Assembly: GCA_965215605.1 (NCBI GenBank)
Contig: OZ244070.1
Span: forward strand, 1,856,001-1,920,000
From: an uncultured Candidatus Binatia bacterium
GTDB lineage: Bacteria > Desulfobacterota > Binatia > UBA9968 > JAJDTQ01
Length of the DNA: 64,000 nucleotides
Direction of reading: 5' to 3'
The first letter of the stretch is position 1, and the number at the start of each line of letters is the position of its first letter. Of the stretch, positions 2,221-12,820 are shown piece by piece. The notes under the pieces were generated by a model. The model saw only the letters and a program-made list of their open reading frames with translations, was not told where the DNA came from and ran no database searches. A program made the translations under genes and the position numbers.

Positions 2221-3432
2221 ATGCAGTACCCCAGGTTGCTCGCTGACCGGCTGATCCGGCTCGCGGCACACTTTCCGGCGGTGGTGGTCACCGGTGCGCG
2301 TCAGGCGGGCAAGACGACCCTGATGCGCGCCACCTTCCCGGATCATCACTACGTTTCCCTGGACCTCCCCACCACGGCCGACCAGGCCGAACGCAATCCG
2401 GACCTGTTCCTGCACCACCATCGGGCGCCGGTGCTCATCGACGAGGTGCAGTACGCGCCCGGCCTGTTCCGCCACCTGAAAGCGGCGATCGATGACCGTC
2501 GTCCTGACATGGGCCGCTACATCCTCACCGGGAGCCAGAACTTCACGCTCATGAAAGGGATCTCGGACAGTCTTGCGGGCCGTTGCGGGATCGTGGAGTT
2601 GGAAAACCTGGCGCTGCACGAGATCGACGCCGTGACTCCTCCCGGCGACGACGCGGCCAGCCTCGCCGGCCTGATGGCCCGGGGGCAGTTCCCCGAGTTG
2701 TGGCGCGAGCCGGAGCTGCGGGCGGCGGATTTCTTCGCTTCGTACCTCGCCACCTACCTCGAGCGCGACGTGCGCCAGATCCTGAACGTGGCGAGTCTCC
2801 GGGATTTCGAGCGCTTCGTTCGCTTGCTGGCGGCTCGCTCGGCGGCCATGCTCAACAAGAGCGACGTCGCACGGGACACCGGCGTGGCGGTGAAGACCAT
2901 CGGCGAGTGGGTGAGCGTGCTCCAGGCGTCCGGCCAGATCGTCCTGCTGGAACCCTGGCACGTGAGCTTCGGCAAACGAGTGGTGAAGACTCCGAAGGTC
3001 TATTTCCGCGACAGCGGCCTGCTCTGCTTTCTGCTGGGGCTTGACGCCTCCACGCTGCTCACCTCGCCAGCCCTGGGCGCCGTATGGGAGACGTTCGTGT
3101 TCGCGGAGATGCGCAAGCTGAACGAGGCCGAATCCGCGCCTGTCAACTTCTGGTACTACCGCGACCAACGCGGCCAGGAAGTGGACTTCGTGCGCGACGC
3201 CGGCGGCGTCCTCGGCTTCATGGAGTGCAAGTGGAGCGAGCGGCCCACCCTGCGTGACGCGCGCGGGTTGCTGCGGGTGAGCGCCGGGCTGGCCGCGTCC
3301 AACAGTCCCTGGCGCCCCGGCCCGCACTACGTCATCGGCCGGCCCGTGTCCAGCCATTCCCTCGGTGAGGGCGTGACCGCCGTGTCGCTGCGCGACCTCC
3401 CCGCCATCGTCTCCGGGAATCCGCTCGCCTGA
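2221..3432 (+). CDS. AAA+ ATPase, AAA_14 + DUF4143 family
   Basis: Walker A GARQAGKT, Walker [30 protein letters not shown]-terminal EVDF..ECK nuclease-like motif. Confidence 0.9.
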
Positions 3433-3541
3433 CCGGTTGCGCTGGACATCGTTGCCTCTCCGCGCCCAAAGACGTAGTAATGGCACAGCCTGGGACGTCG
3501 GCTTCAGGCGGGATGAACGCCGCCAACGAGGAGAAACGCAC

Positions 3542-4522
3542 ATGGAATACCGCCAGTTCGCAACCACCGACTGCAAGGTGTCGCCCATAGGGCTCGGCTG
3601 TCTGAGCATGTCCGGGATGTATGGCGCCGGCGACGACACGGAGTCCATCGCCACGCTGCACCGGGCCTTCGAGCTCGGCATCAACTTCCTGGACACCTCC
3701 GCCAGCTACGGCAACGGCCACAACCACGAGCTCATCGGCAAGGCCATCAAGGGCCGGCGCGACCAGGTGGTGATCCACTCCAAGTCCGGCAGCCCGCGGT
3801 CCGCCGCCGGCACCGGCCTCGACGGCGGCAGCTCGCCCGAGTACCTCGTCCAGACCTGCGAGGAGAGCCTCCAGCGACTGGGCACCGACTACCTGGACAT
3901 GTACTGCATGTCCCGCATCGACCCCGCCGTCCCGGTGGAGGAATCGGTAGGCGGTATGGCGCGCTTGGTGGAGCAAGGCAAGACCCGCTACATTGGACTC
4001 TCCGAAGCCAGCGCCGATTCCATCCGCCGCGCCCAAAAGGTCCACCCCATCGTCTCGCTCCAGATCGAATACTCACTCTGGTCCCGGGACCCCGAGCAGG
4101 GCAACATCGAGGCCTGCCGCGAGTTCGGCATGGGCCTCATGGCCTACTCGCCCTTGGGCCGCGGCTTCTTCGCCGGCGCCGTCCGCAGTCTCGACCAGCT
4201 CGCCGAACGCGACGGCCGCCGCAACCAGCCCCGCCTCCAACCGGGCAACATCGAGCGCAACCTGGAGTTACTGGCCCAAGTGGACGAGGTCGCCAGGGAC
4301 AAGGGCATCACCACCACCCAGCTCGCGCTCGCATGGCTCATGGCCCAAGGTCCGGACATCATCCCCATCCCCAGCAGCAAGAGCCGCAAGCACCTGGAGG
4401 AGAACGTCAAGGCTGTCGAGGTGGAGTTGACGGACGAGGACCTGCGCCGGCTCGACGGCATCCTTCCCTACGGCGCCGCCGCCGGGAACCGGACGCGGGA
4501 CATGAAGCGGGTGAACGTGTAG
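3542..4522 (+). CDS. Aldo/keto reductase
   Basis: [50 protein letters not shown]; GAGGAG RBS upstream. Confidence 0.93.
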
Positions 4523-4643: not shown

Positions 4644-5666
4644 TCAGTCCCGTTCAAGTTGGTTCGTCGACGGCTGTGCACGCACATTGGGCAGACGATC
4701 ATTGATCGCGATTGCCAGATCGCACCCGAAGTTCCGCGTGTTGTCCGTGACTACCGTCCGGGCTCCCGTCGCCTCCACATAGGCAAGGGTTTCTTCGAAA
4801 TCAGCGTGGTTCGACAGCGCTACGCGGTATGCCCGATCTGAAAAGATCTTCAATGGATGGTCGTGGTCTACCATGTAAGCGCTACAGGTGACCATTGTCC
4901 CCTCGACTCGCTCGTTCTTGAAACCGTCGCCCTTTGAGTAGAGCCGCACATATGAACGCTGTTGCACGGCGTGCCTGCCGTCGTCGGAATCAAGCGGAAC
5001 CAGTACTCCGGGCGCGAGGCCATGCTGCTGGTATACCTGCACGCGCCGGATTAGCCGCTCGGTGGCCAGAAGGGGAACGCCCACGTTGTCTCCAAGCACC
5101 TGCAAGGTGCGTTCGATGGTTCCGGGGTGGGCGTGGATATGGACTGAACCGTGCCGTAGTCTCGCACAGACTATTTCAGACAGGCAGGCTTCCGCTTGGT
5201 CCTGCGTGTAACCTCGGACGCTACGGGGGTTACCATAAGTACTGTCAACGACCAGTTCATCGACTTGGATCACGTTGTCGAGGGGCCATCCGAAGTCGCC
5301 GGAATATCCAATCCGATGACCGTCTGGCAACTCCAGGGCAACCTGACACGATCCAAGCATGTGGTTCGATGGGACTAGATGTAACGTAAAGCCTTTTCCC
5401 AGATCATGCGCGACACCGCGTTCGACCGGGTGGAAGTTCTCTCGGTACTCCAGATCAGCATTGTACTCGGCAATGAGCAAAGCATAGGTCTCAGGGCTTA
5501 GCAGGAACTCCTGCAGCCCCTTGCTCTTGTTGAACGCACCCATGTGGTCTTCATGGACGTGTGTCTGGACACGGAAGCGGCAGCCATTAGCGAAACCGTC
5601 GCACACGACCATCTCGCCGAGGCAGACAGCGCCACTCTCCCGCACGTCAACCATCGGGTCAGGCAT
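4644..5666 (-). CDS. Metallo-beta-lactamase fold, beta-CASP-type nuclease
   Basis: THVHEDH (HxHxDH), NHMLGS, YSGDF, LVVDSTYG, ALSNHADF; ATG 5666 overlaps the upstream stop (ATGCCTGA). Confidence 0.8.
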   Translation of the reverse strand: MPDPMVDVRESGAVCLGEMVVCDGFANGCRFRVQTHVHEDHMGAFNKSKGLQEFLLSPETYALLIAEYNADLEYRENFHPVERGVAHDLGKGFTLHLVPSNHMLGSCQVALELPDGHRIGYSGDFGWPLDNVIQVDELVVDSTYGNPRSVRGYTQDQAEACLSEIVCARLRHGSVHIHAHPGTIERTLQVLGDNVGVPLLATERLIRRVQVYQQHGLAPGVLVPLDSDDGRHAVQQRSYVRLYSKGDGFKNERVEGTMVTCSAYMVDHDHPLKIFSDRAYRVALSNHADFEETLAYVEATGARTVVTDNTRNFGCDLAIAINDRLPNVRAQPSTNQLERD

Positions 5667-6369
5667 TTGCGACACACTCCGCAACAAAGGCGCGCAGCAG
5701 AGATTCAATGTCTTGCTTGCCGACATGCTTCATTGACACGCCAAAACCCTCGTCCCCGACCAAGGTGAAAATTTTGGGGCCTAGGCGTCCTGACGCCCCC
5801 TTTAGCCCGATTTTCTCCACGCCCGCCGCCAACATTGCATCCCTTTCTCTTTGTGGAAGCTCCGCAAGAGCTCGCTGTGCACCGCGATCAAGTATGGTGC
5901 CGATGAACACGTAACGCCGGTCGATTGCTTGCCGCATGTTGATGACTTCCTTCACGCACTCGCTGACCGGCCGTCGTGAGCGTTCGTGCAGTTGCACGAC
6001 CTGTCGGACCTCTTTGCTATTCAGGCCGTTGGCGAGTATCGCTTCGGCGACCGTGCGTTGGTCGTCAGCTTTCGGAAGTCGGGTGAGTTCGGTAGCACAA
6101 GAGAACCCCACGGCATCTCGAGGGCTGCCCCAACTTATCACGTGCCGGAGGTCGTCCGGGAGGTCAAGAATACGCAGGAAACGTCTAACGCCCGTCGCGT
6201 CGATCCAGGTCTCCTTTGCACATTCGTCAAGTGAACTGCCGGCATCGCATGCCCGCTGCAGCAATGCACCGACTTCGACCGGCGAAAGTAGACGCTCCTT
6301 TCTATGTTTCCCGTAGCCGACCGACATCCGGAGACGTCCAAGTTCTAGAGGGCTCAGACCTGGGAGCAT
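5659..6369 (-). CDS. ParB/Spo0J-like HTH protein lacking the N-terminal CTPase domain
   Basis: LSPVEVG..L...GSSLDECAKE..IDATGVRRFLRILDLP...GFSCATEL..L...DQ..VAEAI..GLNSKEVRQVV matches the ParB central HTH pattern; no GxRR box. Confidence 0.6.
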   Translation of the reverse strand: MLPGLSPLELGRLRMSVGYGKHRKERLLSPVEVGALLQRACDAGSSLDECAKETWIDATGVRRFLRILDLPDDLRHVISWGSPRDAVGFSCATELTRLPKADDQRTVAEAILANGLNSKEVRQVVQLHERSRRPVSECVKEVINMRQAIDRRYVFIGTILDRGAQRALAELPQRERDAMLAAGVEKIGLKGASGRLGPKIFTLVGDEGFGVSMKHVGKQDIESLLRAFVAECVANA

Positions 6370-6383
6370 GATGGCTACTAATC

Positions 6384-7202
6384 TCAGAGTCCGCGGCCGG
6401 TCAGCGCCTCTTCGATGAGCATGACGGTCGCGTCTCCCTGGTTGGTGCCTTCTTCCCGGGCGACCTGCTGGATGGCACGATGCGTATCCTGTGTCACGGT
6501 AGCGACAACCTGGATGACCTTCGAGCCGGACTTCGCGCCCTCTATAACCTCTACGACAGACTTGTCGGGATTGTCTCTTCGATCCTCCTCCACCTTCTTG
6601 CGTTGGGCTCCTGACATCGATGCCATCTCCTGGGCCAAGACAAGGGCGTCGTCGGTGTTGACCGCGCCGTCGTCGTCCGTTGCCGAATCCTGCGCACGCA
6701 GTGCGGCATTGACATCAACTTGTCCTTCGTCGACCAAGTCCTTCAGTTGTTTCACCAGCCGGGGGTACTTTACGTAGTCCCGCACTTCCCGATGGGGCAG
6801 GCCTGTTGTCTTGACCACGTCCTGAACGCTTCCGTATATGTTGTAAAGGTAAAGGATTCCATCCTTGAGTTCTTTGCCCGACAGCTTGCGACGTATTAGG
6901 TTTTCGGTGATGGAGATTGTCTTGGCCTCAGCCTGCCCGACTTGGCTGTCAAGCACGGCGGCCGAGATGGTGTCTCGATTCAGCATCTTGTAAGCGAGGA
7001 AGCGCCGCTGACCTGTAAGGATCTCCCATTTCCCGGGCTGTTGTTTCGACTTGCAAACCACGATCGGTTGCAGTAGCCCTTGCGCTTCGATACTTGCGGC
7101 GAGATCCTCAACGCCGGCCCCCGGGTTCTCTGTCCGGACCTGTCCCAGACCAATTACCAAGTCGTCGAGGGGTATTTCGCGGTAATCGATGATTTTTGCC
7201 AT
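6384..7202 (-). CDS. ParB/Srx N-terminal domain protein with HTH (ParB-like)
   Basis: LAASIEAQGLLQPIVV (box I), EILTGQRRFLA (box II GxRR), ITENLIR; AAGGAG RBS; no parA nearby. Confidence 0.85.
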   Translation of the reverse strand: MAKIIDYREIPLDDLVIGLGQVRTENPGAGVEDLAASIEAQGLLQPIVVCKSKQQPGKWEILTGQRRFLAYKMLNRDTISAAVLDSQVGQAEAKTISITENLIRRKLSGKELKDGILYLYNIYGSVQDVVKTTGLPHREVRDYVKYPRLVKQLKDLVDEGQVDVNAALRAQDSATDDDGAVNTDDALVLAQEMASMSGAQRKKVEEDRRDNPDKSVVEVIEGAKSGSKVIQVVATVTQDTHRAIQQVAREEGTNQGDATVMLIEEALTGRGL

Positions 7203-7206
7203 GGCT

Positions 7207-8619
7207 TTAGTCTCCTTCGGTTGCATTGGAAGAGGGCGAAAGGGTGCCCTCCGCAAGTTCTAAAATCTCCATGAGTTCGCGCTTGGTGAGTCGCCCGCGC
7301 ACCGTCCCCACAGATTCGATGACCTCGTCGAATAGGGCCTCCTTCCGGTCGAGCACTGTAGCTATGCGCTCTTCGACCGAGTCTCGGACCAGGAAACGGA
7401 TGACATGCAGCGGCCCTTCCCGTTCGAAGCGGTGCGCTCGGTAGACTGCCTGGAACTCGACTGCAGGATTCCACCAGCGGTCGAACAGGACGGCGTGGGT
7501 CGCCTCCCCGAGGTTCAGGCCGACGCCGCCGGCACGAAGGGAAATCAATAGTGCCCGCGGTGTTTGGCCTGTCCTGAACCGGTCGATAGAAATCTGTCTC
7601 TCGGCTGCCGGCATGGATCCGATCAGAAGGTCGTGGGGTATTCCGATCCGCTGGGAAATCTGCCGCAGGGTCTGGACGAACTGCGAAAACACAATCATCC
7701 TCGCCGATTGCCCAGCGCCTTCGCAGATGGCTGTGAGGGCCTCCAGTTTCGATGAAGCACCGCTCTCGACGTCGTAGTTGCAGATCACCTTTAGTCGCGT
7801 AATGAGACCGAGCATGGCGGCGTTGGAGTCTTCCTTTTCCCCGCCGATTTGTGCCGTTCTGGCCGCCCACAGATCGTCGTAGGCGATCCTTTGTGGCGAC
7901 GAGAGCTCGAGGTACAGATCCTGTACGATGACAGCCGGCAGTTCGGCCCGCACTTCACGTTTCCGCCGCCGCAGCATCATTGCCTCCAGCCTCTTGTTCA
8001 GCCGTGTTGCATCGGGATCCCGACGAATATCGGGGTCCAGGAAGGCGAGGATTGAGGCGACGTCTTCGCGGTCGTTTTCGAGCGGCGTCGCAGACAGTGC
8101 CCACGCACGTTTTCGCGGCAGCAGCCGGCAGGCGAGTGCCGTTGCGGAGTTCTTGTTCTTGATGCGTTGCGCTTCGTCCAGGATGACGAGATCGAACGTG
8201 CCTTTGGGAATCTGATCCAGTCCGTCTTGACGGATCTGTTCGTAAGAGGAGACGAGAACAGGGATCGGCAGCAGGTAGAATGCCTTCCGGCTGGCGGCCC
8301 CGCCCTGAAGCCGTCGCGTCGCCAGTGACGGTGCCCATGTAGTGAGTTCGGACATCCAGTTCAGCGTCAGCGAGGCAGGGGCCACGATCAAGGCTCGGTC
8401 GATCCCCTTTTGTCCATTGAGGAGAAGTGCAAGAGCGATTGCTGCCTGGACGGTTTTTCCCAATCCCATCTCGTCAGCGAGAAGGGCAGACGTGGACTGG
8501 TACAGGAATGCCACTCCCTCCCACTGGTACGTGTGAAGGGCGGCGGGGAGCATGAGTTGATCTTCGGCCGCGCTCCGGAGATCTTGCACGTCCAGCGTCA
8601 CTCGAAGACCCACACCCAC
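7207..8619 (-). CDS. Minimal SNF2-family helicase/translocase (core domains only)
   Basis: LHTYQWEGV, LADEMGLGKT, IVAPASL, ILDEAQ, LSATPLEN, IVFSQF, SLRAGGVGLNL, FDRWWNPAVEFQAVYRAHR; start uncertain. Confidence 0.92.
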   Translation of the reverse strand: MGVGLRVTLDVQDLRSAAEDQLMLPAALHTYQWEGVAFLYQSTSALLADEMGLGKTVQAAIALALLLNGQKGIDRALIVAPASLTLNWMSELTTWAPSLATRRLQGGAASRKAFYLLPIPVLVSSYEQIRQDGLDQIPKGTFDLVILDEAQRIKNKNSATALACRLLPRKRAWALSATPLENDREDVASILAFLDPDIRRDPDATRLNKRLEAMMLRRRKREVRAELPAVIVQDLYLELSSPQRIAYDDLWAARTAQIGGEKEDSNAAMLGLITRLKVICNYDVESGASSKLEALTAICEGAGQSARMIVFSQFVQTLRQISQRIGIPHDLLIGSMPAAERQISIDRFRTGQTPRALLISLRAGGVGLNLGEATHAVLFDRWWNPAVEFQAVYRAHRFEREGPLHVIRFLVRDSVEERIATVLDRKEALFDEVIESVGTVRGRLTKRELMEILELAEGTLSPSSNATEGD

Positions 8620-8736
8620 ACGGCAGCTTCAGCGATATCTCGTTGGCATGTCTCGATAACCGCCCGCGAAATGTGCTGTGTCATCGAAGTTAGCCTGTGA
8701 CCAGCGAACTGCAAATACATATGACTTCATTGACCA

Positions 8737-10509
8737 TTAGCTCTCCTCGCGTCCGGAAAAGCACCACACCTGAGCGGCCGCCTTTGCGAGGTCCCTTGAG
8801 CGTTCGGCCACCGCCGTCGGAGTCCACTCGTCATGTATAGCTACATCGCGCGTCATTCCAAATGGGCTGGTCTCAAAAACGGCCTTCTTGGCGGCGAAGT
8901 TCGCGTTGAAACGGTGCCGTGCATGATTGCCGCTGTCGCCCAGCAATGTCAGATTCCCGATTCGAGCAACCCAGTCCCGGAGGTCGTATCCCACCGACGT
9001 GAAGCCGGTCCAACCGGACCAGTAGGTCTCCGACTGCGGCAAGATGTGTTCCACGGAACATCCTTCATAGTCGAATGCGCGGCCTTCACGTTCTTGCTTG
9101 CCGTTGATTCCGAACAACAGTCGTTTGGCTCGCCGGGAATCGGTCATCTGAACATCGAGGAGGCGAGAAATAAATCGTGTGTCGTCCATTATCATCAAGT
9201 CATCACATTCTTCGAGATCTGTTTTTATGTCGAGGTCAGCGACCTTGCTACTGGTCGCGATTCTCCTGGCACAATTGGCAAAACCCGGCTCTACTCTGGA
9301 TGGTTCGAATTTGGCCCCGCAGAAGGAGAGGCGCATCACGAAGGAAGAAAGGTCGCTGAGGCAGTGATGCGCGGCTTTGGCTACTGCTCTCCGGTACCGA
9401 TCTTCGGCTTCAATGAACTTCCGTAACAATGCAAACATTAGCGGTTGCACGACCTTATAACCACCCAATTCCTGAATGAACACAGGCAGATTACGTTTGT
9501 TTCGGGTGGTGCCGGACGCCGTGCAGAAGGCATTAAGCAGTTCCTTGCTTGGGTTTGTGGCAGTGATAGTCCGGAACAGTTCCACGGCAGCGGGACTAGC
9601 AAGCTCATGGACTAGCGCGTAAACGTGCTTGTCTCCATCCGGTCGTCGCCCAGGATTGCGGATCTTCGCCCGAGTATCGCGATAAAAGCGGGTCTTCTGA
9701 AGATAGCCGTACCGACATTGAAAGAAACAGCGGAAATACTCTTGGGATCGCGTAGTGCTTCGAGTAGTTGCGAGGACGCTTTCAAGCTGCTCGTGGACGG
9801 TGGCGCGCCGCTCTGAGTCGGCAGGATCTGTGAAGTACGAGTAAAGGTGGTTTCGAATTAGATCAACGTCATCCAGTCGCTTGCCTCGTCCATTGAGGGC
9901 TTCGAAAACGGCATTGGCGTCCTCTGTCTTGGGGACGTAGAGGACACCAATCTCTACCTTCTGCGTCAGGAAATCGAAAAACGTTTGGGTCTCACTCGGC
10001 CCCATTGCGCTGACGAACAGGGCCACTTCGTTCCAGGCGGAGGTCAATTTGCCGTTCGTCCCGATGTCGAGGCCACGGATAATCTGAGTAAACCGCGATC
10101 GGTCTTGGCGTGGCGGCTCGACGCGAGGCACATCCCGGGTCGTGTCGTCGAAGTTGGTGACCGCGTTCTCCGGGCGATCGAACAGTACGCGCAACGCGAG
10201 CATTTCACGGCCAGCGTCCGTGTCGCGGTTATTTGCGAACCGCCGGCCGAATGCAGCAAAGAGTAGGGAGAGGGTGATCATGCGCTGCTGACCGTCGTTG
10301 ATTTCCCAAACATCCTCACCCGCGACCAGCATAATGGACCCGAGGAAGTAACTTGCCCGATCTTCGTCCAGGGCTTCCTTGAGGTCGACCAACAACTCGG
10401 TGACCTGCTCTACGGTCCAGTCGTAATACCGCTGATGCCACGGCACTGTGAACCGTCCCTTGAGGAAGAGCTCGGACACGAGCAATGCCTCTGACGTGAT
10501 CTGGGTCAT
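8737..10509 (-). CDS. DUF262 + DUF1524 protein (GmrSD/SspE-like NTPase-HNH nuclease)
   Basis: VPWHQRYYDW, FLGSI, INDGQQR, FEALNGRG (DUF262); SVEHILPQ and RIGNLTLL (DUF1524); ATGA overlap with dndC. Confidence 0.9.
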   Translation of the reverse strand: MTQITSEALLVSELFLKGRFTVPWHQRYYDWTVEQVTELLVDLKEALDEDRASYFLGSIMLVAGEDVWEINDGQQRMITLSLLFAAFGRRFANNRDTDAGREMLALRVLFDRPENAVTNFDDTTRDVPRVEPPRQDRSRFTQIIRGLDIGTNGKLTSAWNEVALFVSAMGPSETQTFFDFLTQKVEIGVLYVPKTEDANAVFEALNGRGKRLDDVDLIRNHLYSYFTDPADSERRATVHEQLESVLATTRSTTRSQEYFRCFFQCRYGYLQKTRFYRDTRAKIRNPGRRPDGDKHVYALVHELASPAAVELFRTITATNPSKELLNAFCTASGTTRNKRNLPVFIQELGGYKVVQPLMFALLRKFIEAEDRYRRAVAKAAHHCLSDLSSFVMRLSFCGAKFEPSRVEPGFANCARRIATSSKVADLDIKTDLEECDDLMIMDDTRFISRLLDVQMTDSRRAKRLLFGINGKQEREGRAFDYEGCSVEHILPQSETYWSGWTGFTSVGYDLRDWVARIGNLTLLGDSGNHARHRFNANFAAKKAVFETSPFGMTRDVAIHDEWTPTAVAERSRDLAKAAAQVWCFSGREES

Positions 10510-11678
10510 AAGGGATGTACGGATTTGAGAAGGGCGAGTCGACCGTTTTCGGTGATCTCGTCACGCCACCAAACGTCTTCGATGCACTCGATTTCCGCCG
10601 GGCTGATGAGGGTGTCGCCGACCGTTTTCTCTAGTGCAAAGAGTCGATCAAGAATGGTTCGGCGGACTGCTAGGGTGAATGGACCGAACACCTGGGAGCC
10701 GTCGGACCGGTTCCGAGGGTTACCGTCACGGCGCACGGGAAGTCGATTGCTGTCGTCCTCCCGCAAGGCGATGAGCCATTCGCGGAAGTCCGACAGGCTT
10801 TCCATCTTCTTGGCCTCCTCGTGCCCTGAATCGATCAGGCCCCGGAGACTGCGGTCTTTAGTGACCACCGTGCATGTCCAACAGCCGAATCGTGGGGAGG
10901 AACTGCCACATGACGGTGCGTCGTCTTGTGTCATTACCAGTGGACACTCGCCCCCTCCGGCTTGACGATAGAGAGTGATTAGCCGGCGATGGGTGCCGCC
11001 CCATGGTGGGCGGCGCTGCATCAATACCATCCAGACATCCTCATCGCTGAGGTCGGCAAGCGGGGAGAATATCCGACAGCCCTCCACAGAGTCGTGTTGA
11101 TTGCTTTTCCCGGCAGACACCTTGCGTCGGTCCATGCCTCGCTGCCGGTTTTGTGACTCGCTCCGGCGGCTACCGATTAGGAGAACGGCCCCCCCATGCT
11201 CTCTCACGATGTCTTGCAACAGACGGCTAGTCGGCCGAATTTTCATTCGGTCTGTGCACCACCGAAAATTCCTGGTGGGAGGTATGTATCCCCGCCCTAT
11301 CACACTCACCCAAAAGGTCTGATCGATGGCTGGTGTGGTGACCCGAATGTCCACAGGCATTTCTTGTGTTGTGGCGGCGGCCTCAATCACGTTGAGCGAT
11401 CCTCGGAGATGCCGAATGACGAGCGGCGACTCGACTAGAGTATCATTGCCGACGATGAAGATGGATCGCTGCCGTTGGTCTGTTGGTAGCCCGGCAACTG
11501 TTTCCCAAATCATCTGTAGGAGAAGGGTAGAGTCCTTCCCTCCAGAATAAGCAACAATCCAGGGATGGCCGTGCTTGCGACAGTACTCCCGTCGGAGGGT
11601 CTCTGCGATCTTCTTGAGCCGCGTAGGTAGACTCGTCAGGCTGTTACTGGTCGCCGTTGAACTCGTCGGCGCCTTCAT
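10506..11678 (-). CDS. dndC: DNA phosphorothioation sulfurtransferase DndC (PAPS reductase family)
   Basis: PWIVAYSGGKDS, DTLVE, FWVSVIGRGY, RWCTDRMKI, GECPLV, SCG..PRFGCWTCTVV, GPFTL; ATGA overlap with upstream gene. Confidence 0.9.
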   Translation of the reverse strand: MKAPTSSTATSNSLTSLPTRLKKIAETLRREYCRKHGHPWIVAYSGGKDSTLLLQMIWETVAGLPTDQRQRSIFIVGNDTLVESPLVIRHLRGSLNVIEAAATTQEMPVDIRVTTPAIDQTFWVSVIGRGYIPPTRNFRWCTDRMKIRPTSRLLQDIVREHGGAVLLIGSRRSESQNRQRGMDRRKVSAGKSNQHDSVEGCRIFSPLADLSDEDVWMVLMQRRPPWGGTHRRLITLYRQAGGGECPLVMTQDDAPSCGSSSPRFGCWTCTVVTKDRSLRGLIDSGHEEAKKMESLSDFREWLIALREDDSNRLPVRRDGNPRNRSDGSQVFGPFTLAVRRTILDRLFALEKTVGDTLISPAEIECIEDVWWRDEITENGRLALLKSVHPL

Positions 11679-12820
11679 GTCGTGATGCTCCGAAGAGTTG
11701 ACACAGCGTCATTAACGCGTTGTCCAACGAAGTCGACCTCTACCTCTGTAGTATAGCGACCAACGCTGAATCGCACGGAGGAGAGTGCCAGCGTTTCGGT
11801 GACACCGAGTCCCTCCAGCACGTGTGATGGCTCAATCGACGCCGCCGTGCATGCGGAACCTGCCGAGATCGCAACATCGCCAAGAGCCAGCATCAGCGAC
11901 TCGGCCTCCACGCCGGGAAAGGCAATGTTCAAAATGCCTGGGACTCGCGCGGTACGGTTGCCGTTGACGACCGCCCCGCCAATCTCGTCCAACCAGCCAA
12001 GGAGGCGTCGGTCGATGGCTGCCACTCGTTCCGCGTCACTACTCTGACAGTCGTTTGTGAGCCGCGCCGCCGCTCCTAGACCAACAACCTGGTGGGTCGC
12101 CAACGTCCCAGCCCGCAGCCCAGCTTCTTGTCCGCCTCCATGGATCTGGGGGATGAGCAACGGCCGAACGGAGCGGCGCACAAATAGAGCACCCACACCT
12201 TTCGGGCCATATATCTTGTGGCCGCTCAATGACAGGAGGTCTACTCCCATGAGCGAGACATCGATCGGAAGTCGTGCGGCGCTCTGTACGGCGTCGACAT
12301 GAAACAGTGTGCCGTTTTTCCGTACCACGCGCGCTATGCTCGGGATATCAGTAACAGTCCCAACCTCATTGTTTACGTGCATAAGGGAGACTAACGCGGT
12401 GTCCGGTCGAAGATCCGCGCGGACGACATCCGGCGTGATCATGCCATCGGCGTCAGGTGTGAGGTAGGTCACCTCCACGCCCTGGCCAGAGAGCCAGTCT
12501 GCGGTATCGAGTACTGCCTTATGCTCTAGTGAGGAGACGAGGAGATGCCGACCGCGTACGCTAGGCGATAGCATTACTCCCTTGATGGCTAAATTGATCG
12601 CCTCTGTCGCACCGGAGGTCCAGAAGATTTCATCGGCGTCTGCGCCGATCAACCGCGAGACATGCCCGCGGGCCTCCTCAATAGCCTCTGAAGCTGCATG
12701 CCCAAAGCGGTGGGTGACGGAATGCGGGTTTCCGAAGACGCCGTCGGCTGTCAGAAACTTGGCCATCGTGTTCGCGACTTCCGGTGCAACAGGGGTCGTC
12801 GCAGCGTAGTCTAGGTACAC
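11675..12820 (-). CDS. dndA: Cysteine desulfurase, DndA/IscS-like
   Basis: YLDYAATTP, TSGATEA, EHKAV, HVNNEVG, SGHKIYGPKG (PLP Lys), SAGSACT (catalytic Cys); short C-terminus; coupled to dndC; start uncertain (ORF open to 12997). Confidence 0.85.
   Translation of the reverse strand: MYLDYAATTPVAPEVANTMAKFLTADGVFGNPHSVTHRFGHAASEAIEEARGHVSRLIGADADEIFWTSGATEAINLAIKGVMLSPSVRGRHLLVSSLEHKAVLDTADWLSGQGVEVTYLTPDADGMITPDVVRADLRPDTALVSLMHVNNEVGTVTDIPSIARVVRKNGTLFHVDAVQSAARLPIDVSLMGVDLLSLSGHKIYGPKGVGALFVRRSVRPLLIPQIHGGGQEAGLRAGTLATHQVVGLGAAARLTNDCQSSDAERVAAIDRRLLGWLDEIGGAVVNGNRTARVPGILNIAFPGVEAESLMLALGDVAISAGSACTAASIEPSHVLEGLGVTETLALSSVRFSVGRYTTEVEVDFVGQRVNDAVSTLRSITT

Follow-up and report, generated by a model that had tools for sequence, protein, structure and literature searches.

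We analysed a 64,000-nucleotide stretch of DNA (hereafter the window) from an uncultured Candidatus Binatia bacterium (assembly GCA_965215605.1, contig OZ244070.1, positions 1,856,001 to 1,920,000 of the forward strand), focusing on a cassette of seven co-oriented minus-strand open reading frames (ORFs) that occupies about 8.2 kb between positions 4644 and 12820. Three of the genes are related to DNA phosphorothioate (PT) systems of the Dnd type and the other four encode a SNF2 protein, a ParB protein, a ParB paralogue and a nuclease of the beta-CASP family. The coordinates were confirmed, and the seven genes, numbered g1 to g7 in the direction of transcription, are listed here together with the gap that divides them:

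11675..12820, minus strand: g1, DndA/IscS-type pyridoxal phosphate (PLP) cysteine desulfurase, 381 aa, GTG start at 12820; PF00266 (Aminotran_5), 4.8e-83
10506..11678, minus strand: g2, short DndC, a PP-loop ATP pyrophosphatase with a cysteine cluster and no C-terminal tail, 390 aa; TIGR03183
8737..10509, minus strand: g3, DndI-like protein with DUF262 (ParB-superfamily NTPase) and DUF1524/HNH nuclease domains, 590 aa; PF03235 (GmrSD_N) and PF07510 (GmrSD_C)
8620..8736, no strand: spacer of 117 nt between g3 and g4, the sole sizeable intergenic gap of the cassette
7207..8619, minus strand: g4, minimal SNF2 translocase consisting of the helicase core alone, 470 aa; PF00176 (SNF2-rel_dom), 7.9e-45, and PF00271 (Helicase_C)
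6384..7202, minus strand: g5, CTPase-type ParB with an N-terminal ParB domain, a helix-turn-helix (HTH) and a short two-helix C-terminal end, 272 aa; PF02195 (ParB_N), 3.2e-13
5659..6369, minus strand: g6, ParB paralogue without the N-terminal NTP-binding domain, 236 aa; PF17762 (HTH_ParB), 25.9 bits against a cut-off of 22.6
4644..5666, minus strand: g7, beta-CASP nuclease of the metallo-beta-lactamase fold, 340 aa from M21; assigned from an AlphaFold model and Foldseek

The cassette consists of two modules, module 1 (g1-g3) and module 2 (g4-g7), which meet at the spacer. Within module 1 both junctions are ATGA overlaps (g1/g2 at 11675-11678 and g2/g3 at 10506-10509), and module 2 is coupled by a 4-nt gap between g4 and g5 (g5 start at 7202), a 14-nt gap between g5 and g6 and the 8-nt overlap ATGCCTGA between g6 and g7 (g7 start at 5666). 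The position of the spacer is also the boundary at which related loci swap module 2 for other modules. No sigma-70-like site was found in the spacer by a consensus scan, and the numbers of sites returned by the sigma-70 and terminator scans were not above those obtained with shuffled sequences.

The writer genes of the cassette were compared with curated families. The product of g1 scored 483 bits against SspA and 472 bits against DndA in PADLOC, and its 379 bits against TIGR03235 (DndA) fell under the 480-bit cut-off, so it is IscS/DndA-like and not the curated equivalog. For g2, 336.5 bits were obtained against TIGR03183 (DndC; cut-off 290.4), and PADLOC gave 373 bits for DndC versus 24 bits for SspD and 37.7 bits for BrxP. 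The alignment covers only positions 6-341 of the 447 in TIGR03183, and positions 9-377 of the 505 in PRK06850. The "true DndC" of an earlier first-pass annotation of this DNA therefore clears the curated cut-off but is truncated at its C-terminus. The SGGKDS motif and C141, C245, C257, C266 and C269 are invariant in 14 aligned members of the g2 family; no sequence match to g2 was found in the PDB. The full-length DndC of a related locus, L088, aligns with g2 only through residue 437 of 542, and an excerpt of PMC12193691 places the DndD-binding region of DndC at residues 433-482 and the C-terminal helix; the part missing from g2 is thus the part that holds DndD. Short DndC proteins form a distinct clade, with 57-90% identity among members versus 35-42% to canonical DndC, and the best 120 relatives of g2, at 67-90% identity, range in length from 359 to 399 aa, with 117 of them between 383 and 399 aa.

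The third gene had been described as encoding an SspE-like nuclease. Its DUF262 and DUF1524 domains were confirmed, but judged by sequence g3 is closer to DndI than to SspE: the g3 family profile matched DndI (9JFL) at 2.2e-29 (106 bits) and SspE (6JIV) at 1.7e-16 (63 bits), and g3 is colinear with DndI at almost the same length (590 versus 596 aa). PADLOC scores were 227 bits for HEC-06, 158 bits for Orf5 and 42 bits for SspE. The motifs VPWHQRxYDW, DGQQR and EHxLP...GN...N (HNH-type residues) are conserved in 68 members of the family.

Among the proteins of module 2, the translation of g4 shows the DEMGLGKT and DEAQ motifs, and its matches to DpdE, ZorD and SCO1167-type helicases are confined to their C-terminal motor part. 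Dpd, Zorya and DISARM were considered from these SNF2 matches and ruled out, since the helicase core alone matches. The ParB protein g5 scored 62.8 bits against TIGR00180, above the cut-off, and its profile matched Noc (7OL9) and ParB/Spo0J structures with values from 1.8e-20 (Noc) to 1.9e-13. Its nucleotide-binding boxes GQRR (G65-Q66-R67-R68...A71) and ENLxR (E101, N102, L103, R105) are invariant in 39 members, and g5 thus carries the motifs of CTP-dependent ParB/Noc clamps (GxxRxxA and ENLxR) together with an HTH. The g5 model has a pLDDT of 82, and its C-terminal 75 aa matched no Pfam family at a lenient threshold. The g6 family profile aligns to residues 97-196 of Spo0J (6SDK) at 9.2e-5. 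Alignment of the g5 and g6 families with hhalign was weak (probability 5.5), so their paralogy rests on the separate matches of each to ParB structures.

No Pfam match was obtained for g7, and its sole NCBIfam match was TIGR04122 (ligase-associated DNA-damage-response exonuclease) at 48 bits, far under the cut-off. The AlphaFold model (pLDDT 88.3, pTM 0.85) gave aCPSF1 (2YCB, 1.9e-15), Artemis, Apollo, SNM1A, CPSF73 and RNase J as top Foldseek hits, with probability 1.00 and TMq 0.58-0.71 for aCPSF1, Artemis, Apollo, CPSF73 and RNase J. The HxHxDH motif (H56, H58, D60, H61), H122, D144 and H307 are invariant in 37 members. The catalytic motifs, which had looked intact at first reading, are indeed intact or invariant in g4, g5 and g7. 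No PADLOC model matches g6 or g7. Searched with tblastn, g7 had no counterpart among 72,556 plasmid and 50,697 phage records, and it matched none of the 400 further genomes sampled from the phylum of the window.

In current models, DndC needs DndD and DndE, or SspD needs SspB and SspC, to find and modify sites. The genome from which the window comes measures 4.06 Mb, is 97% complete and holds one DndC; neither a TIGR03185 match for DndD (38 candidates scored) nor a DndB match was found in it. Searches for DndE (TIGR03184) and SspB (DUF4007, PF13182) also gave no match in the genome, in line with the first-pass annotation, which had described the locus as without dndB, dndD, dndE, sspB and sspC, but both searches were silent in all 14 control genomes as well, which makes these two negatives weak.

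To place the cassette among its relatives, we kept the best 80 of 541 relatives of g2 from a scan of species-representative genomes (short-DndC loci, L002-L081) and scored gene presence by tblastn at a coverage of at least 60%. All seven genes are present in 31 of the 80 loci, and the four genes of module 2 in 39; in 37 of these 39 their order is conserved and their strand is that of DndC, and the block is inverted in L006 and L036. Homologues of g1 and g3 occur in 62 and 71 loci, respectively. Fewer than three of the four module 2 genes were found in 39 of the 80 loci, and 25 of these 39 carry a DndB-like gene. The loci span 12 phyla according to their record titles, their flanking genes vary, and on the DndC tree the phylum label changes at least 23 times. 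Many of the records are metagenome-assembled genomes with lineage names that we take to be sponge-associated. The earlier suggestion that the genes form a conserved unit linked to PT genes is borne out by these counts.

The partners that were sought in the genome are also scarce in these loci. No DndD-like gene lies within the fetched flanks in 78 of the 80 (two have one), and a tblastn search with the DndE of locus L123 found no DndE-like gene in any of the 80 or in the window. In L004 and L073, four conserved genes (clusters c175, c176, c177 and c86) come after g3, and the first of them, about 678 aa long, is DndD-like by tblastn; this set may be a second, canonical-type sulfur system beside the compact one.

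Several further observations were made on these loci. L002 and L003 belong to a single named isolate, and both are nearly the same as the cassette of the window: one record matches it at 100% identity from g1 to g6, and in the other the identity is 100% for g3-g6 but drops to 96% for g1 and 94% for g2. Strains or haplotypes thus differ in the writer half and agree in the rest, a hint that recombination took place where g2 meets g3. The DndI-like gene is broken or incomplete in L027, L032, L040 and L074: it either occurs as a GmrSD_N-only fragment plus a remainder (the L027 fragment was confirmed by Pfam) or is partly missing, and these copies look like reader genes in decay, next to a short DndC that is intact. 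In 7 of the 80 loci the cassette adjoins an HNH_2 endonuclease gene whose product is about 300 aa long (cluster c31; L019:8117-9022), and in L019 and L029 this gene occupies the desulfurase position upstream of DndC.

In 29 of the 80 short-DndC loci the slot after g3 is taken by a member of the DndB family, some 425 aa long (Pfam DndB, about 1e-28), which in 20 of the 29 is preceded by a GIY-YIG nuclease of about 110 aa. We refer to this alternative as module B; examples are L063:12890-14522 and L038:12921-14571, and the GIY-YIG protein of L038 is above both Pfam cut-offs. Both modules are found together in 4 of the 80 loci and neither in 14, several of which are on short contigs, and the module label switches at least nine times on the DndC tree. 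In composition g3, module 2 and module B are alike, each combining a ParB-superfamily protein with a nuclease.

Module 2 was also examined away from the short DndC, by a metagenome scan with the g7 family in which 80 loci were kept from 138 relatives. The genes g4, g5 and g6 stand in order upstream of g7 in 37 of the 41 loci with at least 3.3 kb of upstream sequence. Of the 22 loci flanked by 3 kb or more on either side of module 2, a PP-loop writer is present in 17; it is canonical-like in 13, short in three and small in one, and the three short-DndC cases also hold g3. Of all 80 module 2 loci, 20-23 have a DndD-like gene and 23 a DndE-like gene. Two loci are instructive for gene order. L088 has a full-length DndC, DndD, module 2 and then DndA 36 nt past g7, and in L123 module 2 precedes a complete DndB-DndC-DndD-DndE-DndA set, all above the curated cut-offs.

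The third kind of PP-loop partner of module 2 is a small PAPS-reductase-like protein, which comes directly after module 2 in six metagenome loci (L142, L120, L129, L137, L139 and L140). The L142 copy (L142:11270-12061, 263 aa) scored 61.6 bits for BrxP and 27 bits for SspD in PADLOC and is BrxP/CysH-like. In L123 a 380-aa gene lies between module 2 and dndB (L123:11320-12462); it scored 102 bits for PADLOC PDC-S02, also matches models of type IV methyl-directed restriction enzymes, and is a candidate nuclease inside the dnd locus. In L148 and L149 a g7-like gene (53% identity, 81% coverage) lies at 10001-10870.

Base composition bears on the origin of the cassette. GC content is 0.579 in the island versus 0.644 in the left flank and 0.630 in the right flank, and GC at third codon positions (GC3) is 0.60-0.69 across the seven genes versus 0.887 and 0.878 in the two neighbouring genes:

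3437-4522: left neighbour, aldo/keto reductase (AKR); PF00248
13092-13877: right neighbour, short-chain dehydrogenase/reductase (SDR); PF00106/PF13561

These lower values mark the cassette as foreign DNA, and we conclude that it was horizontally acquired. Neither a tRNA nor an integrase was found at the cassette, and flanking direct repeats were limited to short chance matches, so no insertion mechanism was identified. The number and orientation of the genes, their overlaps and gaps, their weaker GC bias and the AKR and SDR flanks all agree with what the first-pass annotation had described. Two genes to the left of the cassette, at 2221-3432 of the window, lies an AAA_14+DUF4143 ATPase. Members of its family (cluster c25) were found in 8 of the 80 short-DndC loci, the one in L049 being confirmed by Pfam, and in L029 and L049, among others, they lie immediately upstream of the cassette. 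The ATPase may be a partner in loose association with the cassette, or a frequent neighbour in such islands.

Among described systems, IscS-DndBCDE-DndI of Salmonella enterica Cerro 87 likewise combines a desulfurase, DndC and a DUF262+DUF1524/HNH NTPase-nuclease of about 590 aa, and there DndI is co-transcribed with the motor-driven DndFGH, to which g3 with module 2 would be the counterpart (PMC11662687, in excerpt). Unlike Cerro 87, the cassette is without DndB, DndD and DndE, its DndC is without the DndD-docking tail, and its second module is made up of SNF2, ParB, a ParB paralogue and beta-CASP instead of DndFGH. SspABCD-SspE is similar in its desulfurase, its writer of the PP-loop class and its DUF262+DUF1524 nickase, which senses PT. 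It differs in that g2 is of the DndC type and not SspD (373 versus 24 bits), in the lack of a DUF4007/SspB match (a search silent in the controls) and in the size of SspE (about 770 aa versus 590 aa for g3), g3 being weaker to SspE than to DndI (63 versus 106 bits). BREX type 4 was ruled out, as g2 reached only 37.7 bits on BrxP and PADLOC found no PglZ, BrxC or BrxL match in the seven genes. TdpABC, described in an excerpt of PMC12914056, offers in its DndC homologue, which writes PT without DndD/E, a precedent for the mechanism proposed for g2. No TdpA- or TdpB-type partners were recognised in the cassette. DndFGH, PbeABCD and SspFGH are likewise multi-gene motor-plus-nuclease modules beside PT-writer genes, but the proteins of module 2 are unrelated to theirs.

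PADLOC gave piecewise matches only, so the earlier statement that the locus matches no catalogued system stands, and the SNF2-ParB-ParB-beta-CASP block was in no defence catalogue searched. A literature search found no description of the cassette or of module 2, though supplementary tables may list such neighbourhoods. A link between DndC-type genes and DUF262 outside canonical dnd operons has been made in passing: dndC neighbourhoods with a DUF262 gene are listed as putative and untested in PMC12914056, and dndA, DUF262/DUF1524 and dndC-like genes were noted in sponge Thaumarchaeota in PMC6790972. In the portions of these two papers that were available, neither covers a truncated DndC, the absence of DndD/E, the DndI-like identity, accessory modules or function. 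The survey of PMC10853773 is anchored on DndD/DndE, and its available text contains none of the terms metallo, lactamase, beta-CASP, MBL, DUF262 or GmrSD, although its supplementary tables may list such neighbourhoods.

The gene content of the cassette, the integrity of its motifs, its conservation and modularity and its linkage to PT-writer genes are established by the results above. We read it as a two-module PT-based defence cassette, a compact writer-reader with a separable restriction module, and consider this reading somewhat better than an even bet. The DndA-type desulfurase (g1) would supply persulfide sulfur, and the truncated DndC (g2) would adenylate the DNA backbone and insert sulfur alone, without a DndD/DndE scanning complex; such writing by the short DndC is proposed by analogy, as tdpC alone is stated to suffice for PT synthesis (PMC12914056, in excerpt). 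By analogy with DndI, for which an excerpt of PMC11662687 reports that PT stimulates the NTPase and releases the protein from self DNA and that unmarked DNA is nicked, g3 would read the mark, being released from self DNA when PT stimulates its NTPase and nicking unmarked invading DNA. Module 2 would act as a second, motor-driven restriction module reading the same mark, a functional analogue of DndFGH, in which the CTP-binding ParB (g5) and its N-terminally truncated paralogue (g6) may bind or clamp DNA, the minimal SNF2 protein (g4) may translocate and the beta-CASP enzyme (g7) may cut. PT sensing by g3 or module 2 and a restriction role for module 2 are what we infer from these resemblances. 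The simplest account would be a compact writer-reader (g1-g3) joined by a portable nuclease module that follows the sulfur mark and not a particular writer. A bolder version, in which the short DndC is a self-sufficient writer and module 2 is a new class of PT-reading restriction machine, with a CTP-gated ParB clamp and its paralogue patrolling DNA, SNF2 driving the complex and the beta-CASP enzyme destroying unmarked DNA, is possible but seems to us rather doubtful.

A different role for module 2 had been proposed in the first-pass annotation, in which the SNF2 protein and the ParB pair take over from DndD/DndE (and DndB) the loading or guiding of the short DndC, and g3 and g7 are the effectors. 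The lack of DndD/E matches in both cassette and genome fits this proposal, as does the membership of DndB in the ParB superfamily, with the DndB-like gene of 29 loci taking the same slot after g3, mostly instead of module 2. The g5 model, moreover, ends in an extended segment and two helices that could be ribbon-helix-helix (RHH)-like as in DndE, an idea left unsupported by the lack of any family match for this end. Yet module 2 coexists with intact DndD and DndE in L088 and L123, and with DndD-like or DndE-like genes in the further loci counted above, so that it cannot be their replacement. About half of the short-DndC loci are without it (39 of 80 with fewer than three of its genes, 14 with neither module), so the writer does not need or depend on it. 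The substitution proposal is accordingly not supported, and we think it improbable; a PT-linked restriction module is the more likely role. Rather less improbable, but still unlikely, is a role for module 2 in maintenance or repair, in which it would deal with nicks or oxidative damage where the DNA carries PT, or tune PT density as DndB does. The sub-threshold match of g7 to a ligase-associated DNA-damage-response exonuclease, the repair nucleases Artemis, Apollo and SNM1A among its nearest folds, and the alternation of module 2 with the DndB-like module all point in this direction. The block, however, has neither a ligase nor a polymerase, is found in islands of lower GC3 and spreads across phyla in the manner of defence genes, and the module it alternates with pairs its DndB-like protein with a GIY-YIG nuclease and so resembles an effector pair.

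The mark itself may be questioned. The short DndC could make another sulfur-containing or adenylate-derived mark on DNA or RNA, read by g3 and module 2, considering that it forms a distinct clade at 35-42% identity to canonical DndC and is without every known partner ATPase, and that Dnd-type cores have been argued to mediate other modifications (PMC10853773, in excerpt). We find this improbable as well, as g2 is above the curated DndC equivalog cut-off, retains the PP-loop and the cysteine cluster, and is accompanied by a DndA-type desulfurase in 62 and a DndI-like reader in 71 of the 80 loci. Defence genes do cluster in islands, and the two modules are separable, but a chance juxtaposition of unrelated defence genes in a hotspot is very hard to reconcile with the recurrence of all seven genes in 31 of 80 loci from many phyla with varied flanks, and with module 2 being embedded within dnd operons elsewhere; the synteny counts exclude such a mosaic for practical purposes.

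Several results weigh against the two-module defence reading. PT writing by a DndC without DndD/E rests on the TdpC analogy, and the silent controls in the DndE and SspB searches reduce the weight of those two absences. DndI Y25, the reported PT sensor, aligns with H25 of g3, inside the VPWHQRxYDW motif, so PT sensing may differ. The fetched flanks of 5 of the 22 well-flanked module 2 loci (L148, L149, L154, L159 and L160) hold no writer gene, and in L148 and L149 g7 stands alone, with no g4-g6 or PP-loop gene in flanks of up to 10 kb, so the nuclease family also exists outside the module. That no DndH-sized ORF (above 880 aa) was found in the fetched flanks of the 25 canonical-like loci speaks for the reading, but the absence of DndFGH near module 2 is judged from ORF size alone in flanks of at most 10 kb. 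Finally, the negative association between module 2 and the DndB-like module (Fisher p = 4e-7) takes no account of the kinship of the loci.

From its sequence, the cassette may be a widespread variant of sulfur-based anti-phage immunity, and module 2 possibly a new kind of effector. A large, highly conserved clade of tail-less DndC proteins accompanied only by a desulfurase and a DndI-like reader would offer a minimal, clonable system for the study of how a PT writer chooses its targets. Module 2 is portable across three kinds of sulfur-writer loci, the Dnd type, the short-DndC type and the small-PAPS-reductase type. If it reads PT, it would represent a new effector type and give CTP-binding ParB proteins a new job; a CTPase-type ParB would thereby serve in immunity for the first time, and DNA sulfur marks would gain a further restriction partner. 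Having spread across phyla, the cassette can also serve to trace gene flow among uncultured bacteria.

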